A stretch of 64,000 nt of DNA from an uncultured Actinomycetota bacterium (lineage in GTDB: Bacteria > Actinomycetota > Actinomycetes > JAFAQI01), in the NCBI GenBank assembly GCA_963770565.1, contig CAVYQE010000002.1, positions 448,001-512,000 on the forward strand, in the 5' to 3' direction. Below, one piece after another: positions 3,025-45,747 of the stretch. Made by a program: the position numbers and the translations under genes. Position 1 is the stretch's first letter, and the number at the start of each line of letters is the position of its first letter. The notes under the pieces are model-generated. The model was not told where the DNA came from, did not search any database, and was given only the letters and a program-made list of their open reading frames with translations.

Positions 3025-3097
3025 GCCCTCGTAGCTCAGGGGATAGAGCAACCGCCTCCTAAGCGGTAGGTCACAGGTTCAAATCCTGTCGGGGGCA
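3025..3097 (+). tRNA. tRNA-Arg(CCT), CCA not encoded
   Basis: GCCCTCG/CGGGGGC acceptor stem, TAGCTCAG-GGATAGAGC D arm, ACCGC-CT-CCT-AA-GCGGT anticodon arm, GGTTCAAATCC T loop. Confidence 0.97.
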
Positions 3098-3109
3098 CTT
3101 CGTGCCGGT
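3095..3109 (+). repeat. left 15-bp target-site duplication GCACTTCGTGCCGGT, overlapping the last 3 nt of the tRNA
   Basis: identical to 22936-22950; both copies abut the TIRs. Confidence 0.93.
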
Positions 3110-3167
3110 GGGAAGGGATGGGAAGGGCCAAAAGAAGGGCCACCCAAACGAACAACAGCCCCCGAAC
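3110..3167 (+). repeat. left terminal inverted repeat (58 bp)
   Basis: GGGAAGGGATGGGAAGGGCCAAAAGAAGGGCCACCCAAACGAACAACAGCCCCCGAAC is the exact reverse complement of 22878-22935. Confidence 0.95.
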
Positions 3168-3354
3168 ACCAGCGCCGGCAAAGGAAAAGCCAGCCACCGC
3201 CACAGCAACGACGCCACAACAGCAGCTCAGCCCACGCGTCCGAACGCGTACGACGTGCAGGCACTCGCGTTCGGGTTCTCGGCAACGGATTCGGCAGCGA
3301 GATCAGGACCGAGCGGGAGGTGCGATGACCTGCGCGAGCACGACCCGCTCATTG

Positions 3355-4530
3355 CTACATGAATTCGACAGCCGCGATTACGTCTCGGGCGGCGAACCTC
3401 CGCCCATACGCCCGGCCGGTCATCTCGGTAAGAACACCTATTTCTACGAGCCGGTCGATCACGCTCTTCGCGGTTGGTGCAGACACCCCGTATTGAGTTG
3501 AGATGAACGAGGCAGTGAGCACCGGCCAGTCGATCAGATCGGCGGCAACTCGGACGATCACACCGCTCCAGTGCCGCTCGTTCAATTGGTCTCGCACGCC
3601 TGCAAGCCATTCGATAAGGGACTGCGCGGACCGAACAAGACTCTCAGACTGTTCGCAGAGAGCTTGGCAGAAGAAGGTGACCCAAGGGTTCCAGTCCCCG
3701 GACTGACTAACCGCGAGAAGGTGCCCTTGGTACTCGTCACGACGCTTCAATAGCCAAGGCGAGATGGTGATCGCTGGCTCTGTCAGTACACCGTGCATGA
3801 GTAGCTCAAGAACAACAAGCAGCCGGCCGATACGCCCGTTGCCGTCCCCAAAGGGGTGCAGCGCCTCGAATTGGTAGTGCGCCATCGCACATCGAAGAGG
3901 AGGGGGTAGGGGGAGGTCTCGGTACAGCCAGTGCTGCCACTGGTCGAGACCGGACCGCAGACGGTCGTCTGGCGGAGGGGGGATGTAGCGCGCGTCATAG
4001 ACCGTGCAACCGCGCGGACCTATCAGCACCTGGTGCTCTCGCACCTTGCCAGGATCTCGGGGCGCCGTTCGTGACTCCCTTGCGAGAATCGCTTGCAGGT
4101 CCTCCAGGAGCCCGATTGTGATCGGTCGCCCCTCACGCATCCACGCGAAGGCTTGGTAGGCCATGCGCTCATACGCCCGAATCTCTGCAACTTCCGGCGA
4201 GGATGGCCGCGCTTGCGGAAGTCGCGCTTCGAGGACGTCGGCCAGTGCGCCATAGGTACCCTCAAGGGCCGAAGTGTCGACAGCTTCGCGCGCCAACGCG
4301 GGCGCTATGAGGATCTGAGGATTGGGTAGTGGCGTGCATGCCTGACGCAGGCCGCTGATCGCGCCCGCGGCCTGCGATACGGCGTTCCAGGTCTCGTTGC
4401 TGAGATCGACCTCGGTCGGAAGGGGATCTGGCAGGAAGGCGAAGTACGAGTATTCACGCAGGTACTCGTCGGTGCCCTGAATTGGTACCAGTTGTCCGAT
4501 TGGACTCTTCCCAAGAGCGTCGAGGTCCAT
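3355..4530 (-). CDS. Fic family protein with C-terminal HTH
   Basis: HPFGDGNGRIGR Fic motif; SALEG inhibitory-type motif; C-terminal wHTH-like segment. Confidence 0.93.
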   Translation of the reverse strand: MDLDALGKSPIGQLVPIQGTDEYLREYSYFAFLPDPLPTEVDLSNETWNAVSQAAGAISGLRQACTPLPNPQILIAPALAREAVDTSALEGTYGALADVLEARLPQARPSSPEVAEIRAYERMAYQAFAWMREGRPITIGLLEDLQAILARESRTAPRDPGKVREHQVLIGPRGCTVYDARYIPPPPDDRLRSGLDQWQHWLYRDLPLPPPLRCAMAHYQFEALHPFGDGNGRIGRLLVVLELLMHGVLTEPAITISPWLLKRRDEYQGHLLAVSQSGDWNPWVTFFCQALCEQSESLVRSAQSLIEWLAGVRDQLNERHWSGVIVRVAADLIDWPVLTASFISTQYGVSAPTAKSVIDRLVEIGVLTEMTGRAYGRRFAARDVIAAVEFM

Positions 4531-4554
4531 GATCGAAAGAGTAACGCCCAAAGT

Positions 4555-4640
4555 CCTAACATCTCTGCACAAGATGTTAGGGACCCCCTTCCAATTCCAC
4601 CGGTGGAATTTAGGGGGAGCGGCCTAACCCTTAACATCTG
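4555..4640. promoter_or_regulatory. inverted-repeat cluster upstream of fic (candidate operator)
   Basis: CCTAACATCT-N7-AGATGTTAGG (4555-4581), perfect palindrome AATTCCACCGGTGGAATT (4593-4610), third TAACATCT at 4632. Confidence 0.5.
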
Positions 4641-4914
4641 CCCCTTGCCTGTGCCCCGAATACGCCTTACGGCAGGGTGGCGCCGCGTGGCTACGCCTGC
4701 GGTCGGCGCGGCTCGTCCCGCTTGCCGTAGCCCGCTCAGCCGAGCGCACCGTCGTTGTCGAAGTACGCTGAGCAGCGCACCGCGGCCCCCTGTTTCAGCT
4801 GATCCAGACGACCACGCCAACAGCAACGAAACAGGCGACGAACACGCTGCTCCATCCGAGTGATCGAACGCGTGTGTGATTGCCAAGGGGTCAACCCCCG
4901 CTATACCTTGTAAT

Positions 4915-4965
4915 CACTGCTCCCCGCCGTCCGGACTTCGGTCCGCACTGGCGGGGCTTTATTTT
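4915..4965 (+). ncRNA. candidate small hairpin RNA convergent with the NYN gene (alternatively only a terminator)
   Basis: CCCCGCC/GGCGGGG stem enclosing CGGAC-TTCG-GTCCG, T tract, upstream TTGCCA-N18-TACCTT. Confidence 0.45.
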
Positions 4966-5561
4966 GCGTAGCGAGTGCTGTCTTTCACCTTCATGTACGT
5001 GGGCATTGTGATCCAGATGCATGGGGCGCGCCGATTGCCCGTCGCTGCGATACACCGCTTGTAGTGGTTCGGGCCGTCCCAGCCGGCTGTCATCGGCCAG
5101 GGAAACGCGCGGCCGTGCAGGTCGAAGGCTGCATCGAGTGGCGGTTTCAGGTCTGTGTCGGTAGTGAAGATCACTCCAATGTCGTACTCGTCGTTGATCG
5201 CCATCATCACGAAATCGACCGCGAGCTGTACGTCTACGCTCTTCTCGCGTGGCGCGCCACCGTCGTCGTAGTGCAGCGGCTTGAGGATGACCTCGGTGCG
5301 GGTCGGATCTGCCCTTCGCAGCGCGGCCGTGTGCTTGCGCACCGCACCGTAGCCCTTGGGGTCCTGTTCGTTGCTTGGGAGTCCGCGGTAGATACGGACC
5401 TGCTTCAACTTCGCGTCGGGGATGCGGCTCACGATGTGTTCGGCCAGCGGGATGGGTCGTATCTGACCGCATTGGGACGGTGAGTCTTCAACATGAAACG
5501 ACTCGCGAGCGCCCTTATAGACGTTCTGCCAGTCAAGGAATACGACTACGCGCTTTGACAC
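4959..5561 (-). CDS. NYN domain (PIN-like) ribonuclease
   Basis: VFLDWQN, EKSVDVQLAVD, TTDTDL acidic motifs. Confidence 0.9.
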   Translation of the reverse strand: MSKRVVVFLDWQNVYKGARESFHVEDSPSQCGQIRPIPLAEHIVSRIPDAKLKQVRIYRGLPSNEQDPKGYGAVRKHTAALRRADPTRTEVILKPLHYDDGGAPREKSVDVQLAVDFVMMAINDEYDIGVIFTTDTDLKPPLDAAFDLHGRAFPWPMTAGWDGPNHYKRCIAATGNRRAPCIWITMPTYMKVKDSTRYAK

Positions 5562-5790
5562 ACCAAGATCATCGCACTAACCGATTGGGGTGTGTGGTCA
5601 TCCACTGCGCCTCCGGCGGCAAGGTCCAGACCACCGGCGGCGCCCCGCCAGACGTTATGGCATCGGATCGCCAATTGCGCTGACAGACATAGTCATGGGC
5701 GGTAAACAGGCACCGTCACGCACCGCTACCGAAAGGACGCGCCATAGCAAAGGTCGCCCCGTTTTGTCACGTCACACATCACCGGTTTGT

Positions 5791-7383
5791 TTATGGTTGT
5801 CGCAGTTTGACAGCGGTGAGCTTGGCAAGTGCCGCCCAGTGCGATGGGTGTGGCCGGGAGTGACCGGCTCGTATGCGGCTCGCGGAGCCCTTGCTGAGAC
5901 CGGTAGCGGCGACTATTTCAGCGAGTTTCACGCTCGCGAGTCCTGCATGGATTTCCGGCCATGTTGCGGGGTCGAACGCTCCGTCGCCGCCACCGTGCTC
6001 CCACGCCTTCTGCGCTCGTTTGCTTGCCGCGATCGCTCGCCCTCGCACGCTCCGCACGTGCTCGGAGTGGGCTGGATCGTCGGCCCGGCAGGACGGGCAC
6101 CGCACGTGGCGGGGGTTGGACACAGGCGCTCCGCATCCCGGGCAGGCGTAGAGCTGGGCTGCAGGCGACGGCCGCGAACGACGCACATGAACCTGAGCTC
6201 CTTTCCTTGCTCGGCCGGCCTTGTGGGCGGACCGGCTCAACACCGTAGGCACCTGAAGCGGGTCGGGAGCGTCGGCGCCGAGGCGACGCGCGATCTCCTC
6301 GGCGATGGGACTGCACACAGCACGTAGGGCGGGGAGAAGCGCCTTGGCGTAGTCGTGTGTCAGGGGTGCCAGAAGACGTATCTCACCGTCGGGTTGTTCG
6401 GCGAAGTCGGCCTTCCGGAACCGTCGGTCGGTACTGAGCGTCCAGACGGTTTCTTCGACGATCGCGCGGAGCGGCTCCATCAGGTCGAGCGCGAACGCGG
6501 GCCGGTTCGTCCGGTCGGCGTGGGCGAGGCCCATGGCTGGGTCGAGCCCGAGCGCGAGGGAGGCGATGGTGGCTTCGATCTCGGCGAGCCGGTATCCGTA
6601 GTTGAGCAGGGAGCAGGCGGGGGTGGCAGCATGCCGGTTGCTAGGTGCCTCATTGAGCGGGCTGGTGCGGGCGCCAAAGGCGGTCCAGTGCCCCGGGATG
6701 CGGGCCTTGTCCTTGGGGAGGAAGCCGAGGCGTAGCTCGTCGGCCCAGGCGGTCCAGTAATGCTCGGCAGCGTGCATCTCGATCACCATGAGCGCGGCTT
6801 GATCGGTCGCTGTGTCGAGGCTTGCGCCGAGTTCGTCGATGGCGGCGGCGCGGTCCTCGCGGTTGATCAAGTCACGGGTGATCCGTGCCTGGTCGCCAAG
6901 CCGCCGGTGGAGAAGTGTCCGGGTGATTTGTAGCCCGGTGTCGGTGTATGCGGCGAGGGCTTGGGCGCGTCGAAGTGCGCCGTGCCCGTAAAGCTGGGGC
7001 GCGCCAATCAGCAGGGGGTTGGCGGTCGGTCCGGCGACGATGAGTGCGGTGCCGAGATTGGCGCACCAGCCAGCCGCGTCGGTGGTCACAGTCCCGTGGC
7101 CGAGGATCAGGACCCGACGCACACCCCCGGCGGCGGCTTGGGCGCGGGTGATCCAACGGGTGCGTCGGTATTCGCCGATCCCGTCGATGACCTCCAGTGC
7201 GCCTTGTTGGACGCGAACCATGACGCCGTATCCGTCTCCGATCATGACCTCGCCGATCGTGTCGTCGGTGAAAGTGCGATGGGTGTTCTCGCGTCCGTCC
7301 TCGACGTCGTCGGCGGTGATGGCCCGCGGGTCAGGCGATCTCGGCGCTGTTGGTTGTTGGTGGGTAGCGTTTCGGGTTGCCAT
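5791..7383 (-). CDS. cas1: solo Cas1 (casposase) with C-terminal Zn finger and HTH
   Basis: IEMHAAEHYW, LLNYGY, GLDPAMGLAH, LDLMEPLR Cas1 motifs with catalytic E/H/E; CPGC..CPSC; C-terminal HTH; GGAG RBS-like sequence upstream. Confidence 0.92.
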   Translation of the reverse strand: MATRNATHQQPTAPRSPDPRAITADDVEDGRENTHRTFTDDTIGEVMIGDGYGVMVRVQQGALEVIDGIGEYRRTRWITRAQAAAGGVRRVLILGHGTVTTDAAGWCANLGTALIVAGPTANPLLIGAPQLYGHGALRRAQALAAYTDTGLQITRTLLHRRLGDQARITRDLINREDRAAAIDELGASLDTATDQAALMVIEMHAAEHYWTAWADELRLGFLPKDKARIPGHWTAFGARTSPLNEAPSNRHAATPACSLLNYGYRLAEIEATIASLALGLDPAMGLAHADRTNRPAFALDLMEPLRAIVEETVWTLSTDRRFRKADFAEQPDGEIRLLAPLTHDYAKALLPALRAVCSPIAEEIARRLGADAPDPLQVPTVLSRSAHKAGRARKGAQVHVRRSRPSPAAQLYACPGCGAPVSNPRHVRCPSCRADDPAHSEHVRSVRGRAIAASKRAQKAWEHGGGDGAFDPATWPEIHAGLASVKLAEIVAATGLSKGSASRIRAGHSRPHPSHWAALAKLTAVKLRQP

Positions 7384-7448
7384 GGGAGGTCCTTTCTCCT
7401 GTGGTCAGCCCCGGCGGTGTTAGCCCACCGTCGGGGCGCTTGTCGTTG

Positions 7449-8324
7449 CTAGTGGGTGCGAGCTCCGTTCTCGCGGTGCCGTTGGTTTGTCTTGGTGGCT
7501 TCGATGGCTGCCTGCATGGTGAGAGCTCCGACGATCGCGCCGACCATCGCCGTGATGTCCGAGGGTTCAATGGCGAGGGCGTTCACGGCTGCGGCTGTCA
7601 GGTCCCGAGCCTCGTCGAGTTCGGTGCGCGACGCTTTTCGCACCCAAGCAGCCGAGACGGCGGTACCGGTCTCCATAGGTCCGGCGGTCCCGTCGATCGG
7701 CGTCGCTGTGAGTGCCGCGAGGAATGACTCCGCGAGTTCCGCTTCGGTGGCATTCAGCTCTTCGTCGTCACCGGTGAGCGTTAGATGCACCTGCGCCAGA
7801 AGCGGCTTGAGCATGGGGGCAAGCTTTTCCGCTGCAGCCCGCAACGCGAAGTCGTCAGGGACGACCTCGCCCCGGACTTGTTTGAGGGCCGCTGCTGCAA
7901 GCACAGCGACGGTGTCGGGGTCGTCATCGAGGCCAAAGGGGAGTGGTTGCTCGTCGCGGCGACGGTGTGCCCGGTCCGGACCCCGGCCGGTGGATCCGGT
8001 TGCGGCGTAGTCCGTCTCGTTGATAACCGCTTCGAGCGCCGACCGCAGTCCCTCCTCACGCACCGCTGCGCCTCGCAGCCACGCGAGCACAGCGACCCGG
8101 TGGAGCTGGCGGACTTCAGTCGCTGCACGGCGGAGCGCGACCACGAGCTCGAACGTCCCCTTCGGGTACGCCGACGTCGTGACCCCGCGTCCCCGACGGG
8201 TGACCACCGAGGAGGGAATGAGCTTCTGCTCGCGCAGGTGCTGGACCTGACTGGCGGTCGCCGGCCAGCCAGCGGCGGTCGTCTGGGCGGCAAGGTCGAG
8301 GTCCGCGCGGCTGGGAAGTCCCAC
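7449..8324 (-). CDS. hypothetical protein with N-terminal HTH-like segment, upstream of cas1
   Basis: 291-aa ORF; GWPATASQVQHLREQKLIP resembles a MerR-like HTH start. Confidence 0.6.
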   Translation of the reverse strand: MGLPSRADLDLAAQTTAAGWPATASQVQHLREQKLIPSSVVTRRGRGVTTSAYPKGTFELVVALRRAATEVRQLHRVAVLAWLRGAAVREEGLRSALEAVINETDYAATGSTGRGPDRAHRRRDEQPLPFGLDDDPDTVAVLAAAALKQVRGEVVPDDFALRAAAEKLAPMLKPLLAQVHLTLTGDDEELNATEAELAESFLAALTATPIDGTAGPMETGTAVSAAWVRKASRTELDEARDLTAAAVNALAIEPSDITAMVGAIVGALTMQAAIEATKTNQRHRENGARTH

Positions 8325-8337
8325 GCCACCACTTTAC

Positions 8338-8423
8338 GCGGCACCACGATGCGACCTACTAGCGGCACCACGAAAAGGGCGGCTGCATCGGCGCTGATCG
8401 GAAGCGGCACCATGAAAGGGGCG
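8338..8423 (+). repeat. three direct repeats GCGGCACCAYGA in the divergent intergenic region
   Basis: copies start at 8338, 8362, 8404; copies 2 and 3 extend to 19/21 identity. Confidence 0.75.
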
Positions 8424-8448
8424 CCGAAGGCTTTCGCGCTGTATCCCG

Positions 8449-8673
8449 ATGGGCCATCGTGGGTTGGTGACGACGAGCACTGTGGTGGTGGCACTGCCGC
8501 CCGATTTGGTGGCCGCGGTGGACGCGGAGGCCCGTCGTCGGTTGCTGCGTCGTGGTGAGGTCTTGGCCGCCTTCCTCCGGGACGCCTGGCCGAGTTGGGT
8601 GCAGACCCAGCTTGAACGCGACCTCGCCAGAACACCGAACGCCAATCCAGCCGTCGACGAGACGGCGGACTGA
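8449..8673 (+). CDS. small ribbon-helix-helix/CopG-like protein
   Basis: STVVVALPPDLVAAVDAEARRRLLRRGEVL pattern; first gene of a tightly packed operon. Confidence 0.55.
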   Translation: MGHRGLVTTSTVVVALPPDLVAAVDAEARRRLLRRGEVLAAFLRDAWPSWVQTQLERDLARTPNANPAVDETAD

Positions 8674-8674
8674 G

Positions 8675-9193
8675 ATGCCGCGCCGAAAAACCCCCGGACC
8701 GTCGCCGCTGCGTGGTCGTACCACCTCGGCCGAGCGGGCAGCCAGGACGGCGCGGGAGCAAGCGAAGGCGCAGGCGGCAGGCTTCGGCTCAGCGTATGAG
8801 CAACGACTGGCCCGGGGTCGTGAGCGCGGATTGTCGCGATCGGTGGCGGGTGGGAAGCCGACGCCGCGTGAGGTGCCGCTGTCGAGTCAGCACCTGACCT
8901 TCTACTCAGTCCCGGTGCGCATCGGGTCGGGCACGGTGCTGGTGGATATCGAGACCCGGAACTTGCGTGGGGGGAGTGTGCTCGGCGCCTACCTGGCCGA
9001 CATCGGAGCGTTGCTGCGCGGGCGGCTGACCGCAGCGGAGTTCGAGGCACGGTGGCAGCGGCGGACGGTGGCCGGGCATCGGTTGGAGTCGCGGGCGGCG
9101 TTCGTGGTCGAGGCGATGCGCTCACGTGGCCCGCAGCCGGGTGAGCCGCGGTACCGCCGGGTGGCGGCCGGCGCCGGGGGTGGTTCCCGGTGA
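8675..9193 (+). CDS. basic hypothetical protein
   Basis: ATG 1 nt after the upstream stop; GTGA overlap with the next gene; Arg-rich. Confidence 0.65.
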   Translation: MPRRKTPGPSPLRGRTTSAERAARTAREQAKAQAAGFGSAYEQRLARGRERGLSRSVAGGKPTPREVPLSSQHLTFYSVPVRIGSGTVLVDIETRNLRGGSVLGAYLADIGALLRGRLTAAEFEARWQRRTVAGHRLESRAAFVVEAMRSRGPQPGEPRYRRVAAGAGGGSR

Positions 9194-9522
9194 TCGGCCG
9201 GTGCTCGCGTTGCGGCGTAATCGGTCCGATCGATCGGGATCACCCGTCGGGCCGGGACCACGACATTCCGTTGCACCCGGACTGGACGCTCCCGTTGTGC
9301 CGGGCGTGCTGTCACAAGCTGACGGGCCGGCTAGACCGCGGCGCGGGTGTGGAGGGCGGCGCACCGACAGTGCGACTGGTCGCGAGCCGGGTCGCTTCCC
9401 GGCTTGGCTGCTACGCGCTGACCGATGAACCGCTGGTGCTGGACCCGCAAGTGATCGCGACGTTCGCTCGTCTGGTCGCGGACGTGGCCCGGCGGGTGCC
9501 TGCGGACCTGGCGTGGGACTAG
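9190..9522 (+). CDS. HNH-type (Zn-binding) endonuclease-like protein
   Basis: CSRC...DRDH...LCRAC pattern. Confidence 0.65.
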   Translation: MIGRCSRCGVIGPIDRDHPSGRDHDIPLHPDWTLPLCRACCHKLTGRLDRGAGVEGGAPTVRLVASRVASRLGCYALTDEPLVLDPQVIATFARLVADVARRVPADLAWD

Positions 9523-9524
9523 CG

Positions 9525-12443
9525 GTGAGCGAGCTGTACCGGTTGCGGGTGCGCGGGCATGTCGATGCGTGCCCGAGACCGGCCGTCCGCGGGGAGCCGT
9601 GGGGGTGGGTGCGGGACACGCCGTGGCTGTTGCTGCATGTCCTCGCCGACGGGCGGGACCGTCCGCTGCTCGCGACCGCGCGCGACCTGCACGCGATCGT
9701 GTCTGAGAGCGGGGCGGGACGCGGGGTCGTTTGGTGTGCACGGCCGAGGACATCTACGCCACTGCGGACCGTCTCGACGGGCTGCGCGAGGCACTGCGGG
9801 GTGTGCTCCCGGATGTGCCTGCGGGCTTCGACGTCGAGGATCTGCGGGTCGAACCGTTGGCCCGGGTCGGGAAGCTGATCCGTGACTGTTCCTACCGGAA
9901 CCGGTGGCCGGTGATCGGCTGGGATCTGCCCTGGTTGTTCGGTCGGTGGGCTGAGCACGCCGGAAACGCCCAGGCCCGCGGCCGGGGTGGGTTCAGCCTG
10001 GTCCTGGCCGGGCTCGGCCGGTTCACTGACGGGACGTTCGTGGACGGCGTGGGAGGACAGCCCGGCGCTGCAGGTCATCCCCCGTCCGGGCGGGGACACC
10101 GGCGGGTTCTATCGGTGGGCGAACCCGAAGACCGACCGTTACCGCGGCAAGCACCCGGCCCGGTTCGTTGACCTGCGGGTCCTCGCGGGTGCGCTCGGCG
10201 GCGGGCAGGTTGAGACCCCGGCCGACGCCGCCCGCCTGTTCGACCTGACCTGGCCGGAGCCGTCCGACGACCCGGTGGCGCGGCTCCGCGCGGAAGCGGC
10301 CGCCTTAGGTGAGTTGGCGACCGCGTTGTTCCGTGCGATCGTCGCGGCGGCGCCTGGGTTGGACCCGGCCGCAGTCCAAAGCTTCGGCACCGATCGCCAC
10401 CCACCTGCTCGCAGAAGCGGGTGTCAGGCCACCGTTGGGCAAGACCCGCCGGCTGCCCCCGAATGATCTGGGCGATGCGGCGTCGGCGACGTTCGGTGGC
10501 CGGTTCGACGCTGCACTGGTTGGTGTCGCGCTCCCCGCGGTCCTGGTCGATATCAGCAAGACTTACGCGTCGCTGTTCGCGCTGCTCGGTCTGGACGGCG
10601 TGTACGGGTGTCGGGAGTTCCGCAGCGAACCCCGCGACCCGACCCTGATCGCGTCGCTGCTCACCGACCCGGCCGCGATCTGGCAAGCGGAGACCTGGGC
10701 CGAGCTGGGGTTGACGTTCGTCACGTTGCATCCGACCGGCCAACCATTGCCGTGCTCGGTGGAGCTTGCTCCGGGCCGGTGGCGGAGCATGGTCGCGCCG
10801 CTCGACCTGTCCGGCGGGAGTGCGACCTACCACTGGGCTGAGGTGCTCGCCGCGGTCGTGGCGGGCGCGGATCCCGCGAGCATTCAGATCGACCGGGTGT
10901 TCTCGATCCGGCCGGTCGGCACCCAACCCGACCTGACCCCGGTCCGGCTGGTCACCGGCCGCACCGTCGACCTCACCAGTGGCGAGCTCGGTGCGGCGCT
11001 GGTCACCGAAGCCACCCGCAGCGACCTCCCGCGGTGGCAGCGCAACCTGGCGCGGGCCACCGCGCAAGCCATCAGCTACGGGGTGCTGCTGCGGCACGAC
11101 CCGATCCCACGATCCGGCGAGACCAGCGCGGTCGGACCGGGCGGGCATCGGGTCACCGTCCGAGCCGCCAGGCCGGAGCGACCGGGACCGTTCACGTTCC
11201 TTCCCGCCGGTGCCGCGGTGTGCGCCGCCACCCGGCTGATCATCGCCTTGCTCACCGCCGAGCTACGAGCAGCCGGCAGCGCGGCGATGGCGATCCACGC
11301 CGACAGCGTCACGATCCCCTGCACCCCGACCGGCGAGAGTTTCCCGGTCGACGGCGCATCCGACGGACGCCTCCGCACCCTCACCCCCGGCCAGCTCGAC
11401 CAGCTGCTCGACGGGTTCGCGCCGCTCGGGATCACCTTCCGCACCGAGGTCGCCAACCCCGACGGTCGCACCCACGGGCTCGTGGTCGGGGTCAACAAGA
11501 CCGTCTTCGCCCAGCACCGCGCCGACCGGTCATGGCAGGTCGTGCGCAGCAGCGACACCGGGCTCGGGGGGAGCCTCGCCGACCCGTCCGACACCCCGGG
11601 CACCCGGACCCCGGACGGTCGGTGGCAATGGAGCGCCACCCTCGAAACCACGATGTTCCCCCGGGACGAGCCGGCTCCGCTGCCCGGATGGGTGGACCGG
11701 CCGGTGGTGCGCCGCTACACCGCCAACACCCCCGCCGTGCTGGCGCAGCTGAGGGACGAGCTCGCCGACCCGACCGTGATGCCGTTCGCCCGGTACCTGC
11801 GCGCCGAACCGCTGGTCGGCACCGGCGGGCCGGTCGCGCTCGGCCCCTGGCCCGACCCGGCCCGCTGGGCCGAGGCCGGCTGGCGGTTGCACGGCAAACC
11901 GGTCACCGACCCAGCCGGGTCCTGCCGGGCCCACCCGGCAGGGCTCGCCTACACCCTGACTCGGACGGTCAGCGACTACTTCACGGCGTGGGCCACACCG
12001 AACGATCCGAGCACCACCGGACCGGAGCGCGGCCTTCGCGACCCGGTCCCGATCCGATCCGCTCTTGGGCTGACCGTGGTCGTCGGCCGGGACTCCGCCG
12101 ACCTGCCGGACACCGAGCCCGACCCGGCGATGCCCAACCCCACCAGCCGCCTGGTGTACGGGCACACCGCCCAAGCCGAACTCCGGAACCGCATCCGCGA
12201 CATCGGGCCGCGCCGATTCAGTCAACAGTCCGGGATCGCGTGGTCGACCGTGTCGCAGTACGTCAACGACCGGCCCGGCAGCCCGCAGCTCACTCAACGG
12301 ATCGCGATCGCGCTCGCCCGTTACACCCCCACGCCACGCGCGACCCGCCTCGTGCCGTGCGGGCACTGCAACAAGCCACCAGCCGCCGAAGGTGGTGCTC
12401 GGACCGGTGCCGGATGGCCGCGACCCGAGCCGGTGCCGCGTGA
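9525..12443 (+). CDS. polB: casposon-type family B DNA polymerase-like gene, split by about 4 frameshifts, with C-terminal HTH and Zn finger
   Basis: pieces in ORFs 9513, 9731, 9987, 10309 and the end of 11034..12443; FGGR..VDISKTYAS (motif A), ISYG (B), ERPGPFTF..ATRL, IHADS (C); CGHC..WCSDRC terminus. Confidence 0.75.
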
Positions 12444-13911: not shown

Positions 13912-14677
13912 AGCGTGCTGCCCCATCGCTGTCAGCGTGCTGGAACGGCACGTATGGATCACCTACACCACGCGAGGGCGTGCCCACGACGAAACGCTCG
14001 TGCTCCTACGGCGGCGGGGCCACATTTAGGCGCGCAGTCGCGAGCTGTCGCCATAGCCGCCAACGCAGGGCACGTTCTTCGGGCGCGCGTTGTCGCACAG
14101 TTCGACGTAGTTCATGAGGATCATTCGGACAGACGGCGGCGATACAGGCAGCCAGCCATTGGACTGGAGTCACTCACGTAGAGCACATTAAGCGGCCTTG
14201 ACGGCCAGCGTGAAGTATGTAGAGGACAGCTCGACCAAGTGAGCGACGCGCACGACGAGGACAACTTGCGCGTGGAGTTGCACTGTCGCCGGTAACCGGC
14301 ATTGCGACGCGATGGACTGAGAAGTCGCTGCGGTCGCAGTCTCGGCACGGCCCAGGATCCGAGTTCGACGGCAAGCAGGCAATGCAGGGCGTCGCGGCAC
14401 CTAAGGGAACTTCACAGAAGTCGAGTGACGACTGGGCGACGACGCTGCACCACTACAGCGCGGCGACGAGAAGCGTGAGCGAAAGGACCGGCCAAGACGC
14501 GCACTCAGATGCCCGTCAGACGGCGCGCGCAGTTCAGCATCGCGTTCCACAGGGACTTGATGATGACCAGGTGCCTCCGGGCCAACACAAGTAGAAGGTA
14601 ACGCCGGCTAGGTCCGGGTTGGGTGGGGATCTTCAGGGTGCCGGGAGACAGGCTTCCGGCCTGATCTGGAAGGGTCC

Positions 14678-15590
14678 GTGATGACCATGACCGAGCTGTC
14701 TTTGACGACGAGCGACGCGACGCGATTGGCGATGGCGGCGTTCCTGGCCCGCTACCGCGAACCGACCCTCACCGCTTACACGCAAGACCTCGGTCCTACT
14801 CGGCCTGGTGCACCAGCAGTACAACCGGCGAGGTGCTCCATGTCACCCGCGGCCGAGCTTGAGATGTACGTCCGGCAGATGGAGAGCCCGCGGGTACGCC
14901 GCCGCGACGATCGCTCGCCGCTTCGGCACCGTCGCCACCTTCTATAAGTACGCGGTCATCGACGGGCTCATCACGGCCAACCCGGCGGACGCCGTCACGC
15001 GCCCGAAGGATGGCATGGGAGGGGCAGAGGCGCACCGTGCTGCACCCGCTGGAGTTCGCGGCACTGCTGTCCGCTGCCCGCACGTCCAGCCCGAACGACC
15101 ACGCGCTTGTCTGTCTGCTCGGCATGCTTGGTCTGCGCGTCTCCGAAGCGTGCAACGCCGACATCACCGACATCCGGTACGAGTCCGGCTACGAGCTGCT
15201 GCACGTCATCGGCAAGGGCGCCAAGCCGGCCGACATCCCGCTGCCGATCCCGGTTCTGAGAGCGGTGCGGGAGGCGATCGATGGACGCGACGAGCGGACC
15301 GATCCTGCAGCACCCGGACCGGGCGGCGGATGGACCGGCCGGCGCCAGCAGGGCGCTCGTCCGGGTGGCCCGCGCCGCAGGCGATCAGCCACCAGATAAG
15401 CCCGCACGGCCTGCGGCGGACCTTCTGCACCACTGGCCTTGTCGCTGGCATCGCGATCAGAGACATGCAGTACGCGATGCGGCACGCGGACCCGCGTACG
15501 ACCCTGCGGTACGACATGGCCAAGGCCAACCTCGACCGCCACGCGGCGCATGCCGTCGCCGCCTACCTGGCCGGCATGAGCACCGGCTGA
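14678..15590 (+). pseudogene. tyrosine recombinase (XerD-like), multiply frameshifted
   Basis: GLRVSE, GKG, HGLRR, RHAD, LRY catalytic motifs spread over several frames. Confidence 0.85.
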
Positions 15591-15660
15591 GCCCGGACCT
15601 AGCCGGCGTTCTGTCCGCGCCGCTGGGGAACGATTGACCGGCACGGGGCGTCGTATCACC

Positions 15661-16080
15661 ATGAAGACCATGCGAGTGAGGGTTGGATGGGCCGCGTCCG
15701 CCACAGCGGCGGCCGCGCTGGTCGCTGGTTGCACTCACGCAGCCGCGCCCGCTTCGAGCCCTGTCGCCGAACCAACCAGCCCTGCGCTCGGCACTGTCGT
15801 TGGTAGTTTCAGAGCGGGAGCCGGGCCGGATGGTGGCTCGGGCGGCCCGCTACCGGGCGTGGTTACGGTCAGGCTGCACACGATTGGCGGGCGCGTCGTC
15901 GCCTCCGCACACGCCGACACGACCGGCAGGTTCCACTTCGCGCTCCGACCCGGTCGCTACGCATCGAGCGCGATCGCGCTCAAGAAGTTGCCGTGTCATG
16001 TTGGGCCCACGCCTCCCCAGCGTGTCAACGTGGTGGCGGGTCACGTCGCGCGAGTCGTCCTGATCTGCCCCGTTGGGTAG
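15661..16080 (+). CDS. lipoprotein
   Basis: LVAGC lipobox; beta-rich TDxxGRF..LRPGRY-like segment. Confidence 0.65.
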   Translation: MKTMRVRVGWAASATAAAALVAGCTHAAAPASSPVAEPTSPALGTVVGSFRAGAGPDGGSGGPLPGVVTVRLHTIGGRVVASAHADTTGRFHFALRPGRYASSAIALKKLPCHVGPTPPQRVNVVAGHVARVVLICPVG

Positions 16081-16129
16081 GCACGCCGAAGCGCCGATAC
16101 ATAGCACTCGAACTCGCGGTATGGATCGC

Positions 16130-16735
16130 TCAGCCGCGGAGTTCGGTGTAGGGCGATAGATCGATCAGGTCGCCACGGCAGACGCCGACATTCCTCCTTG
16201 CGATCAGGGATGCCGAGGCCCGCGAAGTTTCGACGCGCAGATCGGCCGAGAGGCTAGCGCCACACTCCGCTCCCCGGTCAACGATGAGATAGGCGTAGGC
16301 GGTGCCGCCCGCCGCGACGGCCACGCTTTCGGAATGGAGTGCGCTCGTGGCGCCAGCGACGATCGGCGGGTATGGCCACCTTGTGGATGGGTGAACGCGA
16401 GTCCATGAACGTGGTGCGGAGGTACGTGTCAGGCGCAGGTACGGGTAGCCCTGGAGTGCACAGGCGCGTCGCGAACGGTTGCGGAATCCGAGGACGTACG
16501 CCGATTCGTGATTGTCGACAACGTGCCCAGTGGCATCCATGGTGATCGCGACCACCGCCGGAGCACACCTCGACAGAGGCGTATCGACGAGGCCAACGGG
16601 TGCCGTTGTCCGGGCCGTCGTGGCCCGTGGCGTCGACGTTGGCGGCGTCTGGGTCGGTCCCGACGCCGATCCCGAGCACCCGGTGAGGAGCCACACCGCG
16701 ACGCATGCGGCCGCCACCGACGTGATGCGCATCAT
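16130..16735 (-). CDS. DUF4232-like lipoprotein
   Basis: LTGC lipobox; FRNRSRRACALQGYP motif. Confidence 0.7.
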   Translation of the reverse strand: MMRITSVAAACVAVWLLTGCSGSASGPTQTPPTSTPRATTARTTAPVGLVDTPLSRCAPAVVAITMDATGHVVDNHESAYVLGFRNRSRRACALQGYPYLRLTRTSAPRSWTRVHPSTRWPYPPIVAGATSALHSESVAVAAGGTAYAYLIVDRGAECGASLSADLRVETSRASASLIARRNVGVCRGDLIDLSPYTELRG

Positions 16736-16809
16736 GACAGTGTGACGTAGTCAAGCCTCTGAAGGTTGGCTCTCACCAATCGGCTTCTGTACCGCGCGAT
16801 AGGTGATGC

Positions 16810-18150
16810 CATAACGGAGCGGGGCCTCCCGCTCCTGTGAGTACCGCAGGAGACTGCGGTTGCTCATAAACCCACATGGTGAGGGAGGCCACCAATGAGT
16901 GACGGTATCGCTAGGAAGAAGCAGTTCGTCGGCGTCGACCTGCATCTGCACCGGTCGGTGATCGTGCGGATCGACAACCGCGGTCGCGAGCTCGAGTGCG
17001 TGCGGATCGACAACTCTGTGTCCGGCCTTGTCGCTGAAGTGGCGAAGGCTGGGCAGGGTGCGCCGGTCGCGATCGAGGCGACATATGGCTGGTACTGGGC
17101 GGTCGACGCGTTGCAGGCGAAGGGTTTCGAGGTGCATCTCGCGCACCCGTACGGGATGAAGCAGATGCGGAAGCGGCGCCGGGTGAAGACTGACCATGCG
17201 GATGCGCTGGAGTTGGCGCGGCTGATGCGGCTTGGTTCACTGCCGGAGGCCTACATCGCCCCGGTCGAGCTTCGGGAGCTGCGGGAGCTGGTCCGCCACC
17301 GCCAGCAGCTGACGAAGGTCGCGACCTGCAACCAAGGGCGGGATCCGCGCCGGGTTGGCGAAGCACGGGATCCGTCTGCCGGTCAGCAAGCTGAACACGG
17401 TTGCTGGGTCGGATCTGCTCGATGAGCTACGGCTTCCGGGCTACTACGGGCAGCGGCTCGCCGCGCAACGCCGGATGATGATGCTCGTCGAAGACGAGCT
17501 GGCTCGGGTGGAGCGCGAGCTGGACCGTCGGTTGAAGACCGACCCGGACTACCGGCGGCTGCAGAGGATCAAAGGGATCGGTCCGATCCTCGCGGCGGTG
17601 TTCGTCGTCGAGATCGGTGATGTGAGCCGGTTCCGCAACGCGGCCGCGATCACCTGCTGGGCCGGGCTGACTCCACGGGTGCATGAGTCCGACCGGCGCC
17701 GACACGACGGCTCGATCAGCAAGGAAGGCTGCGCCCTGGTCCGGTGGGCCGCAGTCGAATCGGTGCAACGCCAATGCGAACCAGTCATCCGAGCCGTCCG
17801 GGACGACATCCTCGCCCGCCGCGGGAAGAGAGCGAAGAACACCGCGAAAGTCGCCGCCGCCAGGCGGATGCTCGAGGTCGTCTACTACACGCTGCGTGAC
17901 GGTGAGGCCCGTTGCCTGACCAAGCCGGTCGCCGCCGCGTGAACACCGTCAAGACTTCGTGCGGGTCGAAGTAGCGGCATGACCCACCCTCGGGTGCGGT
18001 CGACGAAGTGAATGACCCCACGACCCTGGAACCCAGGGACGCTCGCACGGCTTCATGCTGACCACCACGTCGCGAAGGGATGCCTGACAGCAAACTGGCT
18101 GTCGCCGAGCTCTGCCATTTCAAACTGAAGCCGAACCTGACAACCACATA
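16810..18150 (+). mobile_element. IS110-family element (ends tentative)
   Basis: transposase 16895-17942; no TIRs; CATA at 16810-16813 and 18147-18150 as candidate core. Confidence 0.7.
16895..17942 (+). CDS. IS110 recombinase/transposase, one frameshift near 17330
   Basis: VGVDLH, IEAT, KTDHADA (RuvC-like DEDD); KGIGPI, WAGLTP..ES. Confidence 0.92.
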
Positions 18151-18372
18151 GCGACGCCGGCAACACAGTCTGCGTCAACCACGAGACGGCCTCAACACCG
18201 TTCGTCCTCGCGCTCCGCGCTCCGGGCGCTGCGTGTTGACCCCGCCCCGCGATCGACGCCGCCCTTGATCTGCCGACCATCGCCGAAGAACGCTCAAAAC
18301 AAACAGTTGACGGCCCCACTCCGTTCAGGGATGCCGTTCTCGATCGTTCCCGGCCGGCGGACCTGTCGGTGG

Positions 18373-19636
18373 TTACGAGGCGGGTCGCAGGATGGCGAGG
18401 CCGACGGGGCTGGCGTCGCAGTGGCAGCTGGGCGCGAAGGTGCCGATGATAATGAGTCCCTGTCGTGTCCATACGTCGTCGTACAGTCGAGTGAGGTGGC
18501 GGAGTCGCGGTGCGGGGTACCACGTGCGGCTTGCCGGGTCGTAGGCGGCGACGGCGCCTTCGGCGTCAGGGCCGAAGTCTTGACCACCGAAGCCTTCGCC
18601 GCCCTGGATGCCACTGATCACGCGTCCAGTGACGAGGGCGCTGGCCATGTCGCGACGAACGGTGTCATGTGCAGCGTGGTGGTCCTCGTGGTGCCGAGCC
18701 GGATGAGCTGTGGGTCCGGGTCGATGCCAATCCCGCAGAAGGAGCCGAGCGGGCAGTCCTGGCCAGCGATGAGCTGCTGAGGCCCGAAGCTCTGAGCCGT
18801 GTCGACGGTGACCGGGAGTGTCGGCTGGGGCTGTCTTTCCCAGCGGTCGCCGTCGAGGCGGTAGAGGTGCGCGGTCTCATGCCCGCTGGGATCGTTCGCG
18901 GTCAGGAACGCCCAGATGGAGGTGCCCTGCACGTAAGCGGCGGCGGAGCCAGATACGGAAGGCTGGGCAGCCGGGTCCAGGTCGAGCCGTCGACCCGCAT
19001 CGCCTGGCTGTCGTTCATGACAACCGCAAGCTGCGAGTCGGCGACCACGAGTGCGCCTTTGAGAATCTCGGGCGGGTCGAGCATGGTCCACCGGTTCGTG
19101 GCGGGGTTCAGCTCCGCGTCGTGTCCCCAGTCGTCGATGATGATTGCTCGCGAGCCGGTCCACGCTGCCTGCCAGCCGCCGTCGAGACGCAGCTGGGACG
19201 GCGGTGCCGCGAGCCGCCGCCACTGGCCGGTCTGCAGGTCGTAGAGCGCGACGCCGTCCTGACAGGTCTTCGGCCCGTCGGACAGGACGGCCAGAACGCC
19301 GAAGCTGGTCGACAGCACCTGTGAGATGCACTGCGCGATCGACGTCGGAACCGGGGTGACCTTCGACCAACTCCCGTCAGCGATCTGCTGCGCTGACGGT
19401 CCGGTCAGCCGGGCGGCTGGCACGGTCGGCTTCGCTGCGCTGAACGAGCCTGCGATGTCGACCGCGGCGAGCAAGACGAGTGCAACCAAGGCCGCTGACA
19501 GCACGACCGTGACGGACCGACGAGTCCGGCGCTGGCTGGCAGCGCGGTCGAGCATCTCCCGAACCGGCGCCGGCCCAACCGGGAAGCTCGCGCGCCGCTG
19601 GAGCGCATCGCGCAGCACGGCGAGGGAGTCACTCAT
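18373..19636 (-). pseudogene. membrane-anchored Kelch/propeller-like protein downstream of the ECF sigma factor (frameshifted)
   Basis: pieces in ORFs 18902, 18618, 18373; TM helix; repeated YD/NPxxxxW motifs. Confidence 0.55.
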
Positions 19637-20123
19637 CGCCGACCTCCATCTCATCGCGTGCCTGATCGACCCGAAGCGCGACAAGCGCACGGTGCGCCCG
19701 CGACTTCACCGTCCCAACCGAACACCGCAGCATTCTCGCGATCTCCGCCTCGCTGCAGTCGCAGTAATAACGAAGCACCACCACCGCCCGCTGCTCCGGC
19801 GGAAGCGCGGACAACGCCCGCTCGAGCACCATCGCCGACTCGACCCCGAGCGCTGCATCCGGCGTTGAACGCTCCGGCATCGATAGCGTCGGCACCTCAC
19901 CACGCCACCTGCGCTGCCCGGCCCGCAGCGCGAGCCTGCTCATCACCGTGCGGGTATAGGCGAGCGGGTCGTCCACCGAGGACCACCGGCGGTAGGTCTT
20001 CAACAGCGCAACCTGCGCGAGGTCCTCACCCGCCGCAGGGTCGGGCGCGAGCAGCCGCCCGGTCCGCACCAGCGCGGCCCACGACGACTCCACAAACCGC
20101 GTGAAGTCCTCGTCGTGGCCCAC
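19629..20123 (-). CDS. ECF sigma factor (actinobacterial SigE-like family)
   Basis: GEDLAQVALLKTYRRW; LPPEQRAVVVLRYY..SEAEIA..GTVKSR. Confidence 0.92.
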   Translation of the reverse strand: MGHDEDFTRFVESSWAALVRTGRLLAPDPAAGEDLAQVALLKTYRRWSSVDDPLAYTRTVMSRLALRAGQRRWRGEVPTLSMPERSTPDAALGVESAMVLERALSALPPEQRAVVVLRYYCDCSEAEIARMLRCSVGTVKSRAHRALVALRVDQARDEMEVGDE

Positions 20124-20653
20124 ACCTAATAAGAGCACCGATGGCCCGAAGAAGGTTCCCCAAGACACAGTCCTTCTGCAACGGACTGCGGTCACGACCG
20201 ACCGCCGAGTAAGTGCCGCTACCGTCGGGCACCATCCCTGCCGTTCGGATCGGGGCCGCTAGGTGGAAATGAGGTCAGTAGCGCGTTCCAAACCCCGCCG
20301 CAACCTAATCGGCTCGGCCACCGGCATGGACCATACTGCGTCGAACTGTCGGCAAGTCGCGCAATGGGGATCCGCGCCGCCGTCATGTTCACCGCGGTGA
20401 GCTCGTCCACCGGCCATTGCGAGGTCGAACAGCGCGTCGATGGCTTGCCAGGTCACTCCGTCGCCCTGCACCACAAGGCCGTCTCTCGACCCGAAGTCGT
20501 CGTCCGCCTCGAGAATCCGAGCGGCGTTTTAACGCGCGGCATGCGTGGGTCTCGCGCCCGGTCCGTCCACCAAGAGCATCACGCGCGGCAAGCAACGCGT
20601 CCGATGCGTTGCCTTTGCGGAGGTTCTGCAGTCTGAGATAGCGGGACGGCATG

Positions 20654-21358
20654 TCAGCGCCAGTCCGAGCCTGACAGGTTCACACTCGCTGCGCCGTATA
20701 TGTCATCGAAGGTGATCCCACCGAAGTTGATCGCGTTGAGACGCCTCGTGGTGTAGTCGACCGTCACGACCTGTTGCAGTTTCGTATCTCCGAGGTTGTT
20801 CGTCTCAGGGAAATATCCGAAGATCCCGACCTCGCGCAACATTGGATAGTCGCTTTCGTAGGTCTTGATGATCTGGAGCATGTTGTAGACATCTTCCTTC
20901 GCCCCGCCGGTCCGAAGACCCTGCGTCAGGTTGTCCTGGATCAAGAAGGGCACCGACAGGAACCGACCGCTGTACTTCAGGCGGACGATCCGTGGCGAAC
21001 CGGCGTAGATTCGACTTCCCTAGCTTGTTCAAAGGGTGGCTTTGAGCGATGTTGGCGCACTCGGCGATGAGGCTCCAGGTGGCGAAGTCGAGGGCCCGGG
21101 CGATGACGAGGACTTTCCATTAGGGCTGACCGCGTTGCCGATAATGCCGACGACCGCTAGCACTGCCACAACGGTGAGAACAACGGACCATGCGGGATGG
21201 CGCTTTACCCAGGACCGCGAGTCCCCTGGCCAGAAGTTCCAACCTTCCAGTGGCGGGCCCCATGACGGATCGGGGGTCCAGCCGGCCGGTGGCGACCAAC
21301 CAGGCGACGGCGAAGCCGGCCAGTTCGGCGGAGGCGTCCAAGCCATGGGGCGGACCAT
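20654..21358 (-). pseudogene. hypothetical membrane protein, frameshifted
   Basis: WTPPPNWP..GWTPDPSWGP N-terminus with TM helix (21029..21358) continuing into 20654..20953. Confidence 0.5.
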
Positions 21359-21536
21359 AGACCCTGGCGGGGACGATAGACCCAGGGGAATGATCCGATG
21401 CCGACCACACCCAACTCAGTTGCGCCCGCACACGCACTCCACCGTTTTGGACGCGTGGGGCTAGCGCCTGCCGTAGCTATTCCATGCTGGGTCCCTGCCG
21501 CCGCTGGGGCTCGTCTGCTCGTCGGTGCCAGCTGTT

Positions 21537-22877
21537 TGAATCGCCCTGGGTTGCTTGGAGGCTCCAGACCTTGGAAACGAGGATGGAGTCATGGGGAACG
21601 AAGGCACACCGGGAAGCCGACTACGCGTCGGTACTCACCGGAGGAGAAGGCGCAGGCGGTCCGGTTGGTGCGTCAGCTGCGCAAGGAGCTCGGGCACCGA
21701 GCACGGGACGGTCCAGCGGGTCGCCGAGCAGCTCGGCTCGGGGTGGAGTCGTTGCGGTCTGGGTGAAGCAGGCCGAGATCGATGACGGTCGAGCCGGGCA
21801 CGACGACCGTCGGAGGCGAAGCGGATCAAGGAGCTCGAGCAGGAGAACCGGAGCTGCGGCGGGCGAACGCGATCTCTGAAGTCGGCGTCGGCTTTTTTCG
21901 CGGCGGAGCTCGACCGCCCACAGAGGTGATGGTCGCGTTACATCGACGAGCACCGCGACGAGTTCGGAGTCGAGCCCATCTGCCGCACGTTGCAGGTGGC
22001 TCCGAGCACGTACTACGCGGCGAAGTCCCGGCCGCGTCGTCGGCGCGGGCGGTGCGCGACGCGGTGATGATGCAGGTCCTGATGGTGTTGTGGGTCGCGA
22101 ACCGCAAGGTCTACGGGGCACACAAGCTCTGGAAAGCGGCCCGCGGGCCGGCCATGACATCGGCCGGGATCAGGTCGCCCGACTGATGCGTGAACTGGCC
22201 ATCGAGGGCGTCTCCCGACGCCGCAAGAAGGTGTTCACCACCCGGGCCGATCCCGACGCGATCCGAGCGCCGGATCTCGTCAACCGGAACTTCACCGCCG
22301 ACCGGCCCGACGCGTTGTGGGTCACCGACCTGACCTATGTGCCGACCCGGTCGGGGATGGCGTACGTGTGTTTCATCGTCGACGCGTTCACCCGCCGCAT
22401 CGTTGGCTGGCGGGTCGCGTCGAACATGCGCACCGCGATGGTCCTGGACGCGCTCGAGATGGCCCGCGACGATCCCGCGGCGGGAAACGATTCGTCGGGC
22501 TCGTGACCCATTCCGATGCCGGCGTCGCAATTCACGTCGGTGCGGTTCACGGAGCGACTCGACGAGATCGGCGCACGCCCATCGATCGGCACCGTCGCCG
22601 ATTCGTACGACAACGCGCTGGCTGAGACGACCAACGGGCTCTACAAGACCGAGTGCGTCTACGGACCCGACACCAACGGCTGGGACGACGTCGACGAACT
22701 CGAACTCGCGACGCTGTCATGGGTGCACTGGTTCAACGACGACCGCCTCCACAGCCACTGCAACGACATGCCACCCGCAGAGTTCGAAGACAGCGTTCTA
22801 CGCTGCGCTCGACAGACCGACCAGCGAGGCGGTTGGAATCCAATAACCCGAGCCTCCATCAGACCCAGGGCGATTCA
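21537..22877 (+). mobile_element. IS3-family insertion sequence, frameshifted orfA/orfB
   Basis: TGAATCGCCCTGGG.../...CCCAGGGCGATTCA ends, 3-bp TSD GTT, WVTDLTYV, HSD, DNALAE integrase-core motifs. Confidence 0.95.
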
Positions 22878-22935
22878 GTTCGGGGGCTGTTGTTCGTTTG
22901 GGTGGCCCTTCTTTTGGCCCTTCCCATCCCTTCCC
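22878..22935 (-). repeat. right terminal inverted repeat (58 bp)
   Basis: exact reverse complement of 3110-3167. Confidence 0.95.
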
Positions 22936-22950
22936 GCACTTCGTGCCGGT
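22936..22950 (+). repeat. right 15-bp target-site duplication
   Basis: identical to 3095-3109. Confidence 0.93.
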
Positions 22951-22992
22951 GGGAAGGGATGGGAAGACAGAAACCCCAACACCAGCCACCGA
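22951..22992 (+). mobile_element. left end of a second, related casposon-like element (extent unknown)
   Basis: first 16 nt identical to the TIR start; AACACCAGC and CCAGCCACCG also occur near the first element's left end. Confidence 0.6.
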
Positions 22993-44851: not shown

Positions 44852-44886
44852 CTGCGCTCCTTCGTCGTACCGGACCGCAGCATCTC

Positions 44887-45699: not shown

Positions 45700-45747
45700 C
45701 AACGCCACGCCGACCTCCGCCTCGGGCGCCAACCGCCCGACCACCTG

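Follow-up and report, generated by a model that had tools for sequence, protein, structure and literature searches.

A probable casposon with a broken polymerase gene at the 3′ end of a tRNA-Arg(CCT) gene in an actinobacterial soil genome

Casposons are the proposed ancestors of the CRISPR adaptation machinery. Bacterial and actinobacterial members have already been published (PMC4046053; PMC4779613; PMC5894146), and the family-3 elements NitAL212-C1, HenMar-C1, AceAut-C1 and StrAlb-C1 share with the element described here a bacterial host and an HNH gene (PMC4046053; PMC4779613). The family-2 element AciBoo-C1 of Aciduliprofundum boonei differs from it in its archaeal host and resembles it in encoding a set of Cas1, family-B DNA polymerase (PolB) and HNH protein, with a polymerase of the PolB_CDTDS group (PMC7544198). 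Tandem casposons and solitary terminal inverted repeats (TIRs) are described from Methanosarcina (PMC4779613), and pipolins are self-replicating elements located at tRNA genes in Actinobacteria (PMC5695915). The subject of this study is a 19.8-kb segment (3110-22935) of a 64-kb stretch of DNA, called the window below, whose positions serve as coordinates; it belongs to an actinobacterial soil metagenome-assembled genome (MAG) of 11 contigs. This segment is probably a casposon, similar to those of bacterial family 3 and carrying a broken polB gene.

The original prediction for this locus was a complete casposon, recently inserted at tRNA-Arg(CCT), with perfect 58-nt TIRs that each abut an identical 15-mer. 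Its description of the ends was borne out by a repeat finder, a probe search and ARAGORN, and the ends and target site comprise the following features.

3025-3098, + strand: tRNA-Arg(CCT), found by ARAGORN; its 3′ end is the presumed "leader-like" integration landmark
3095-3109, + strand: left copy of the target-site duplication (TSD), 15 bp, overlapping the tRNA by 4 nt
3110-3167, + strand: left TIR, 58 nt and perfect, with a weaker subterminal motif at 3228-3244
22878-22935, − strand: right TIR, 58 nt and perfect (repeat finder, probe match)
22936-22950, + strand: right copy of the TSD, 15 bp (repeat finder, 15-mer search)
22951-23072, + strand: third, truncated copy of the left end, with a TIR stub at 22951-22966 and a subterminal motif at 23049-23072 (repeat finder)

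The repeat finder returned inverted arms at 3110-3176 and 22869-22935 (67 nt, 94% identity), the outermost 58 nt of which are identical in the printed sequence, and a 32-nt probe from the TIR terminus matched the window exactly twice, against zero matches expected (100 shuffles). The 15-mer GCACTTCGTGCCGGT occurs in the window only at the two TSD positions, 3095-3109 and 22936-22950, even with two mismatches permitted. The tRNA, the only one in the window, is 100% conserved across four congeneric genomes; the 15-mer starts 4 nt inside it and the TIR starts 11 nt past it. This pattern of inverted repeats and 15-mers is real and lies far beyond chance. TIRs of 58 nt with a TSD of 15 bp agree with the TIRs and duplications of about 14-15 bp that mark casposons. 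The targeting is also of the A. boonei type, as had been predicted: the TSD begins in the last bases of the tRNA, the element lies downstream and the tRNA is left intact. AciBoo-C1 is described with the same tRNA 3′-end target and a 15-bp TSD, the overlap being 5 bp there and 4 bp here (PMC5137440), whereas the TIR sequences of the two elements are unrelated.

The direct repeat is longer than the simple 15-bp TSD first proposed. Its exact length is 31 nt (3095-3125 = 22936-22966), since the right 15-mer is followed by the third TIR stub, and the 16 nt that this adds to the 15-mer are identical to the outermost 16 nt of the TIR. About 100 nt past the stub lies the subterminal motif (23049-23072), which recurs at 3228-3244 and, inverted, at 21439-21462. 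Most simply, the stub is a relic of an older tandem casposon copy that was displaced downstream. Repeated use of a site has been predicted to place each new copy upstream of the previous one, next to the tRNA (PMC5137440), and a third stub behind a shared TSD matches the published model of site re-use (PMC5137440; PMC4779613); the polar re-use predicted for AciBoo-C1 is here seen in the DNA (PMC5137440). According to the Methanosarcina account, two insertions there likewise occupy one site with a shared TSD between them, one copy has a polB gene full of stop codons, and lone TIRs are left behind, as in a sister species discussed below (PMC4779613). In contrast to Methanosarcina, the older copy in the window is reduced to 16 nt of TIR and the subterminal motif, and the broken polB lies in the tRNA-proximal, presumably younger copy (PMC4779613).

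The element carries a stand-alone cas1 gene and an operon of three further genes.

5791-7383, − strand: casposase gene cas1, 530 aa, frame intact (Pfam Cas_Cas1, E 3.7e-35; TIGR00287)
8552-9193, + strand: gene for a conserved small basic protein, the first gene of an operon with the HNH-like gene and polB (alignment; tblastn matches in 7 of 11 related loci)
9190-9522, + strand: gene for a putative HNH-like zinc-finger nuclease, 110 aa, with C5, C8, D17, H18, C37 and C41 invariant in six of six sequences
9519-12443, + strand: family-B DNA polymerase pseudogene, with frame changes near 9700-9735, 10020-10040, 10392 and 12355-12390

In the Cas1 protein, the Cas1 core is followed by a C-terminal CxxC...CxxC zinc ribbon and then by a helix-turn-helix (HTH)-like tail. 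A word-based search gathered 81 Cas1-family proteins, the window's own included, mostly of about 500-550 aa, and in an alignment of 33 homologues both the Cas1 catalytic set (E201, H287, D299 and E302) and the four ribbon cysteines are invariant. Eight NCBIfam Cas1 models match, only the generic TIGR00287 above its cut-off and the seven CRISPR-subtype models far below theirs. Among PDB sequences, the Cas1-family profile matched 6opm best (143 bits, E 1e-40), with the CRISPR Cas1 4n06 next (139 bits); we take 6opm to be the casposase of Methanosarcina mazei, the title of the entry reading only Cas1. Matches on plasmids were to CRISPR Cas1 and reached at most 31% identity. By eye, the window Cas1 resembles the family-3 rows for Saccharopolyspora spinosa and for Streptomyces albulus in a published alignment, compared in rows cut at 400 characters. 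With its full catalytic tetrad, this Cas1 is unlinked to cas2 or a CRISPR array, as is typical of casposons: Tandem Repeats Finder detected no CRISPR array in the window, the repeat finder detected no regularly spaced repeat family there, and the only cas2 of the genome lies on another contig, C1, beside the other cas1. This second, canonical cas1 (C1:243420-244695; loci L001 and L035) scores 314 bits to Pfam and directly adjoins cas2; the host probably has its own CRISPR adaptation module beside the casposase.

Two further parts of the original prediction stood up to these analyses, namely a casposon with Cas1, PolB, an HNH-like gene, TIRs and a TSD and with no cas2 or CRISPR array nearby, and the presence of integrase, donor ends and target together, since an intact cas1 gene, perfect ends and the target lie at one locus. 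Judged by sequence comparison, the element appears to fit bacterial family 3 best, given its bacterial host, its HNH gene, the extra zinc and HTH modules of its Cas1 and the likeness seen by eye; a bacterial host and an HNH-like gene are combined here with a non-protein-primed, casposon-type PolB that is shared with family 2. The Cas1 of NitAL212-C1 is likewise described with extra zinc-binding and HTH modules (PMC4046053; PMC4779613), and the zinc ribbon before the C-terminal HTH-like tail sets the window casposase apart from that of AciBoo-C1. The HNH-like gene has no match in Pfam or PHROGs, and its product, in which a CxxC...DH...CxxC pattern is kept in all six aligned homologues, fits a small HNH-type nuclease. 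The true start of the small basic protein is probably later than position 8552.

The polymerase was identified by motifs and predicted fold. Its open reading frames (ORFs) have no match in Pfam, NCBIfam or PHROGs, PF00136 is without a match genome-wide, and a sequence profile of the polymerase family returned only weak HTH noise from PDB sequences. Homologues of the 10309-12360 frame do exist, the full-length ones being 1011-1118 aa long, and a profile search of 1.84 billion representatives gave 1915 relatives at E <= 0.001. Pfam DNA_pol_B_2 was touched by five of the 29 relatives scanned, in one case above the cut-off. The exonuclease II (ExoII), A, B, C and KxY motifs are all present in an alignment of 88 sequences, and its commonest motif-C strings (YAFCDTDSMAI in 13 of 88 and WVFCDTDSMAI in 3 of 88) contain CDTDS, the signature that names the PolB_CDTDS cluster of Kazlauskas et al., which includes the A. 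boonei casposon polymerase (PMC7544198). An AlphaFold model of the intact homologue P0004 (mean predicted local distance difference test score, pLDDT, 92.5; predicted template-modelling score, pTM, 0.90) was compared with the PDB by Foldseek; the matches listed are all family-B polymerases, with phi29 at the top (E 5.6e-10, target-normalised TM score 0.53), and the ESM Atlas neighbours agree with this assignment. Motifs and modelled fold together show a real PolB that belongs to a divergent actinobacterial branch within the casposon-type PolB_CDTDS group. The element therefore includes the family-B polymerase gene that is expected of a casposon, though as a pseudogene.

Other residues stand in for the first Asp of motif C (HADS, AVDS, HCDS, NTDS and others) in the actinobacterial branch closest to the window, which also has Asn for the Lys of KxY (N-R/K); the wider polymerase family retains CDTDS and K-R-Y. 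AciBoo-C1 differs from the window in these same motifs, with CDTDS against HADS and KxY against N-R/K, and the window polB is broken. Pipolins resemble this branch in the replaced first Asp of motif C, but they are described with tyrosine integrases, direct repeats and KTRG and SxTTDG motifs, where the present system has Cas1, TIRs, a TSD and, in the wider polymerase family, KxY and CDTDS (PMC5695915). Identity with a pipolin was considered and rejected on the polymerase motifs, which are KxY/CDTDS or N-R/K/HADS, and on the ends, which are TIRs with a TSD.

A tblastn search with P0004 recovered the window polymerase as four segments in differing frames (9519-9716, 9734-10018, 10038-10442 and 10393-12378); the C-terminal zinc-ribbon motif lies in a further frame, and the gene is spread over five reading-frame segments. 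At least four frameshifts are present, one of which is an extra G between ACC and ATC, outside any homopolymer run. The Lys and Asn of motif B, which are usually conserved, are replaced in the window copy, and a genome-wide polymerase search found internal stops in two of three matches. Outside the element, from 24 to 64 kb, genes are long and unbroken, with a coding density of about 90%. Because the gene lies in several frames, one inserted G is outside a homopolymer, motif B is altered and the genes outside are intact, polB is read as a real pseudogene.

Related loci were drawn from public collections with the 11 closest Cas1 sequences, giving 11 cas1 loci. Beside cas1, tblastn found the polymerase in four of them (L003, L007, L009 and L011), the HNH-like gene in six and the small basic gene in seven; a more distant PolB accompanies genes for a single-stranded DNA-binding protein (SSB) and a methylase at L004. 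Loci without matches mostly offer too little sequence upstream of cas1, and one of them, L010, has 1.6 kb upstream and no match. Recurrence is confined to cas1, polB and the genes for the HNH-like and small basic proteins, and cargo varies by locus, with HipBA, DUF4041-T5orf172, Mrr and a Ser/Thr kinase in the relatives against Fic, NYN and an extracytoplasmic function (ECF) sigma factor here. The 11 loci yielded neither inverted repeats nor TIRs like those of the window, save for a weak terminus at L011, most of these contigs being too short to hold both ends.

The casposase is rare among the sampled genomes, occurring in one of 38 genomes of the order and two of 401 sampled genomes of the class, the window's own genome being counted in both. 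The second genome, G245, contains a relative of 12 kb whose 43-nt TIRs are perfect and similarly purine-rich in design (L040:11134-11176 and L041:8093-8135, contig C1); its 14-bp TSD is perfect as well. This relative splits a gene for a T2SSE (TadA/CpaF-like) secretion ATPase, of which Pfam positions 4-216 lie to the left and 212-263 to the right, a textbook example of the footprint left by transposition. The polymerase of this relative falls into two ORFs (413 and 729 aa) with a 4-nt overlap, either a natural split between exonuclease and polymerase or a frameshift. At the metagenome locus L011, a similar purine-rich terminus begins 13 nt after a tRNA-Lys gene. With one insertion in a coding gene and another behind tRNA-Lys, target choice therefore varies within the lineage. 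Bacterial casposons known in 2016 are given as all intergenic (PMC4779613), which differs from both the tRNA 3′ end used in the window and the gene split by the relative.

Congeneric genomes add a record of the target site itself. In G003, with a flank 91% identical to that of the window, the same tRNA-Arg is followed first by a 15-mer in which 10 of 15 positions match and next by a stretch of TIR, about 55 nt long with 4-5 mismatches; beyond it the sequence is unrelated. This assembly (92% complete, 550 contigs) contains one TIR copy and no casposase, and the locus is a lone TIR or a truncated element. Since the divergence of its TIR (about 92% identity) is similar to that of the flank (91%), the comparison suggests that the tRNA-Arg site has been occupied for a long time. 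About 400 nt past the lone TIR, a 247-aa ORF (contig C362, locus L034, 291-1034) shows kinase-like motifs (NADRSGHN and DHGHCF); nothing corresponding to it occurs in the casposon of the window. Four further genomes, three of them congeneric and one from a neighbouring genus within the family, have unrelated sequence after the tRNA and no TIR. Against congeneric G002 and G004, the whole of 3.1-42.1 kb (39 kb) is a variable island, of which the casposon forms the first 19.8 kb; in both, a homologue of the gene at 42136-44361 sits 2.2-3.6 kb from the tRNA. Downstream of the casposon lie an IS630-type transposase gene (23342-24412), a histidine kinase gene and other genes, and with the transposase and other genes following the element, the tRNA is therefore taken to be a multi-use integration hot spot.

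Within the element, later damage is recorded by three mobile-element features in addition to polB.

14808-15590, + strand: remnant of a tyrosine-recombinase gene in two frames, the second piece at 15010-15399 (Pfam Phage_integrase on both; PHROG integrase)
16895-17942, + strand: transposase gene of insertion sequence (IS) family IS110 in two frames, with Pfam DEDD_Tnp_IS110 and Transposase_20 on separate ORFs
21537-22877, + strand: IS3-family insertion of 1341 bp, with 39-nt imperfect inverted repeats, a 3-bp GTT duplication and rve domains on two ORFs

The IS3-like element abuts exactly the inner edge of the perfect right TIR. The element can no longer be called complete, as originally proposed, given at least four frameshifts in polB, an IS3-like element in the right end, and IS110 and tyrosine-integrase genes that are each split in two frames. 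The argument that unmutated ends indicate a recent insertion is likewise weakened by this internal decay and by the TIR of G003 at the same tRNA site.

Several observations weigh against a casposon with a broken polB as the reading of the locus. The one public run found consists of contigs with a depth of about 2 and partial cover, none of which bridges the ends of the element, and the frameshifts are calls of the assembly. The joints listed for this run have sides of 20-23 nt, and the listing includes no RNA run. The placement among casposases is the weaker part of the case, drawing on the 4-bit lead of 6opm over CRISPR Cas1, the by-eye family-3 likeness and gene context. An empty-site allele, which the original prediction proposed to look for, was absent from the related genomes examined, the four others diverging directly after the tRNA. 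The 31-nt exact repeat, taken with the tyrosine-integrase remnant, could suggest att-site recombination. To our knowledge, the casposases tested biochemically are archaeal only, and we know of no bacterial casposase with demonstrated integration activity. Three alternatives were considered. The same casposon might be intact and autonomous, the frameshifts in polB and in the IS110, IS3 and integrase genes being indel errors of metagenome assembly. Its flawless TIRs and TSD speak for this, as does the origin of the genome as a MAG of 11 contigs, and the broken genes all lie in one mobile region that may have had lower or mixed coverage. Against it, the genes at 24-64 kb outside the element are unbroken, one polB frameshift (the extra G) lies outside a homopolymer, the motif B Lys and Asn are replaced, and the contigs of the public run are free of indels over the parts of the region that they span, at a depth of only about 2 and with partial cover. 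We regard this alternative as unlikely, and would give about the same small chance to assembly errors as the source of the polB breaks in particular. Two same-strand ORF pairs overlapping by more than 100 nt were seen at 44468-45744 and 57796-59759; they might be frameshifted genes outside the element, which would bear on assembly quality.

The two remaining alternatives are both very improbable. An integrative island of a tyrosine recombinase would turn the 31-bp repeats into attL and attR and the Cas1 and PolB genes into cargo or remnants. Such an island would account for an exact direct repeat of 31 nt beside a tRNA, for the integrase remnant inside and for the 39-kb island that varies against G002 and G004; it leaves unexplained why perfect 58-nt inverted repeats start exactly at the 15-mer. 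Moreover, the 16 extra bases of the repeat are TIR sequence, the overlap with the tRNA is only 4 nt, the remnant lies in mid-element, and the G245 relative, bounded by TIRs with a 14-bp TSD, has no integrase domain (Pfam, 15 interior or flanking ORFs). A tectivirus-like provirus encoding Cas1 has a precedent in Streptomyces, where family-3 members were later re-read as Toil-like proviruses; the "casposons" of Streptomyces noursei and S. albulus are reported to encode a Toil-like polymerase and a divergent capsid protein of the double-jelly-roll type (PMC5894146), and several window ORFs are without an assigned function. However, neither a capsid protein nor a packaging ATPase was found in the window by Pfam or PHROGs, searches that divergent capsids may escape, the genes that recur in related loci are limited to cas1 and the three genes of the operon, and the polymerase had no tblastn match among 50,697 phage records. 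A casposon with a broken polB remains the preferred reading.

By analogy with archaeal casposases, the Cas1 casposase would have bound the terminal repeats of the element and joined their 3′ ends to both strands of the target, formed by the 3′ end of tRNA-Arg(CCT) and the bases that follow it, the two cuts lying 15 bp apart; repair of the gaps would then have given the 15-bp duplication. The new copy would have come to lie between the tRNA and an earlier copy, of which only the 16-nt TIR stub and the subterminal motif are now left. The operon of small basic protein, HNH-like nuclease and PolB would normally copy the element. With the polymerase now a pseudogene and IS elements since acquired, the element might at best be moved by its intact Cas1 and would not replicate itself.

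A broader proposal is made tentatively, and we consider it less likely than not. The element may belong to an actinobacterial casposon lineage, so far uncatalogued, that would combine a casposase of about 520 aa with zinc ribbon and HTH, a polymerase of about 1000 aa with HADS and N-R/K motifs that may prime or extend DNA differently, and a tRNA 3′ end used repeatedly and with polarity as a landing pad resembling a CRISPR leader. In the available text of the casposon papers searched, no actinobacterial casposon at a tRNA gene and no HADS polymerase branch is described. If the proposal is correct, this would be the first time that a casposase, its donor ends, its target and the traces left by successive insertions had all been defined for one bacterial system. 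The intact bacterial casposase gene, the 58-nt donor ends and the tRNA-Arg/15-mer target could be used for testing the tRNA-as-leader logic in bacteria, and the tandem relic here and the lone TIR in a sister species offer natural records of site re-use. Because the polymerase has no Pfam match, screens that combine cas1 and polB through Pfam miss the lineage, and bacterial casposons are probably under-counted. The gain is incremental and leaves the casposon concept unchanged.

The remaining genes of the element are cargo or lack a family assignment.

3355-4572, − strand: Fic-domain protein gene, cargo (Pfam Fic_N and Fic; NCBIfam match under cut-off)
4959-5561, − strand: gene for an NYN-domain protein (predicted RNase), cargo (Pfam NYN, E 1.5e-8)
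7449-8324, − strand: 291-aa ORF upstream of cas1, not found in related loci
12392-12892, + strand: 166-aa ORF with strong third-position GC and no family match
18902-20195, − strand: ECF sigma factor gene, cargo (19629-20195; Pfam Sigma70_r4_2 and r2), with a downstream overlapping ORF (18902-19690)

A further ORF at 13456-13911 has a strong coding signal and no family match, and its product begins with a lipoprotein-type signal, in which a run of Leu and Ala is followed by Cys.

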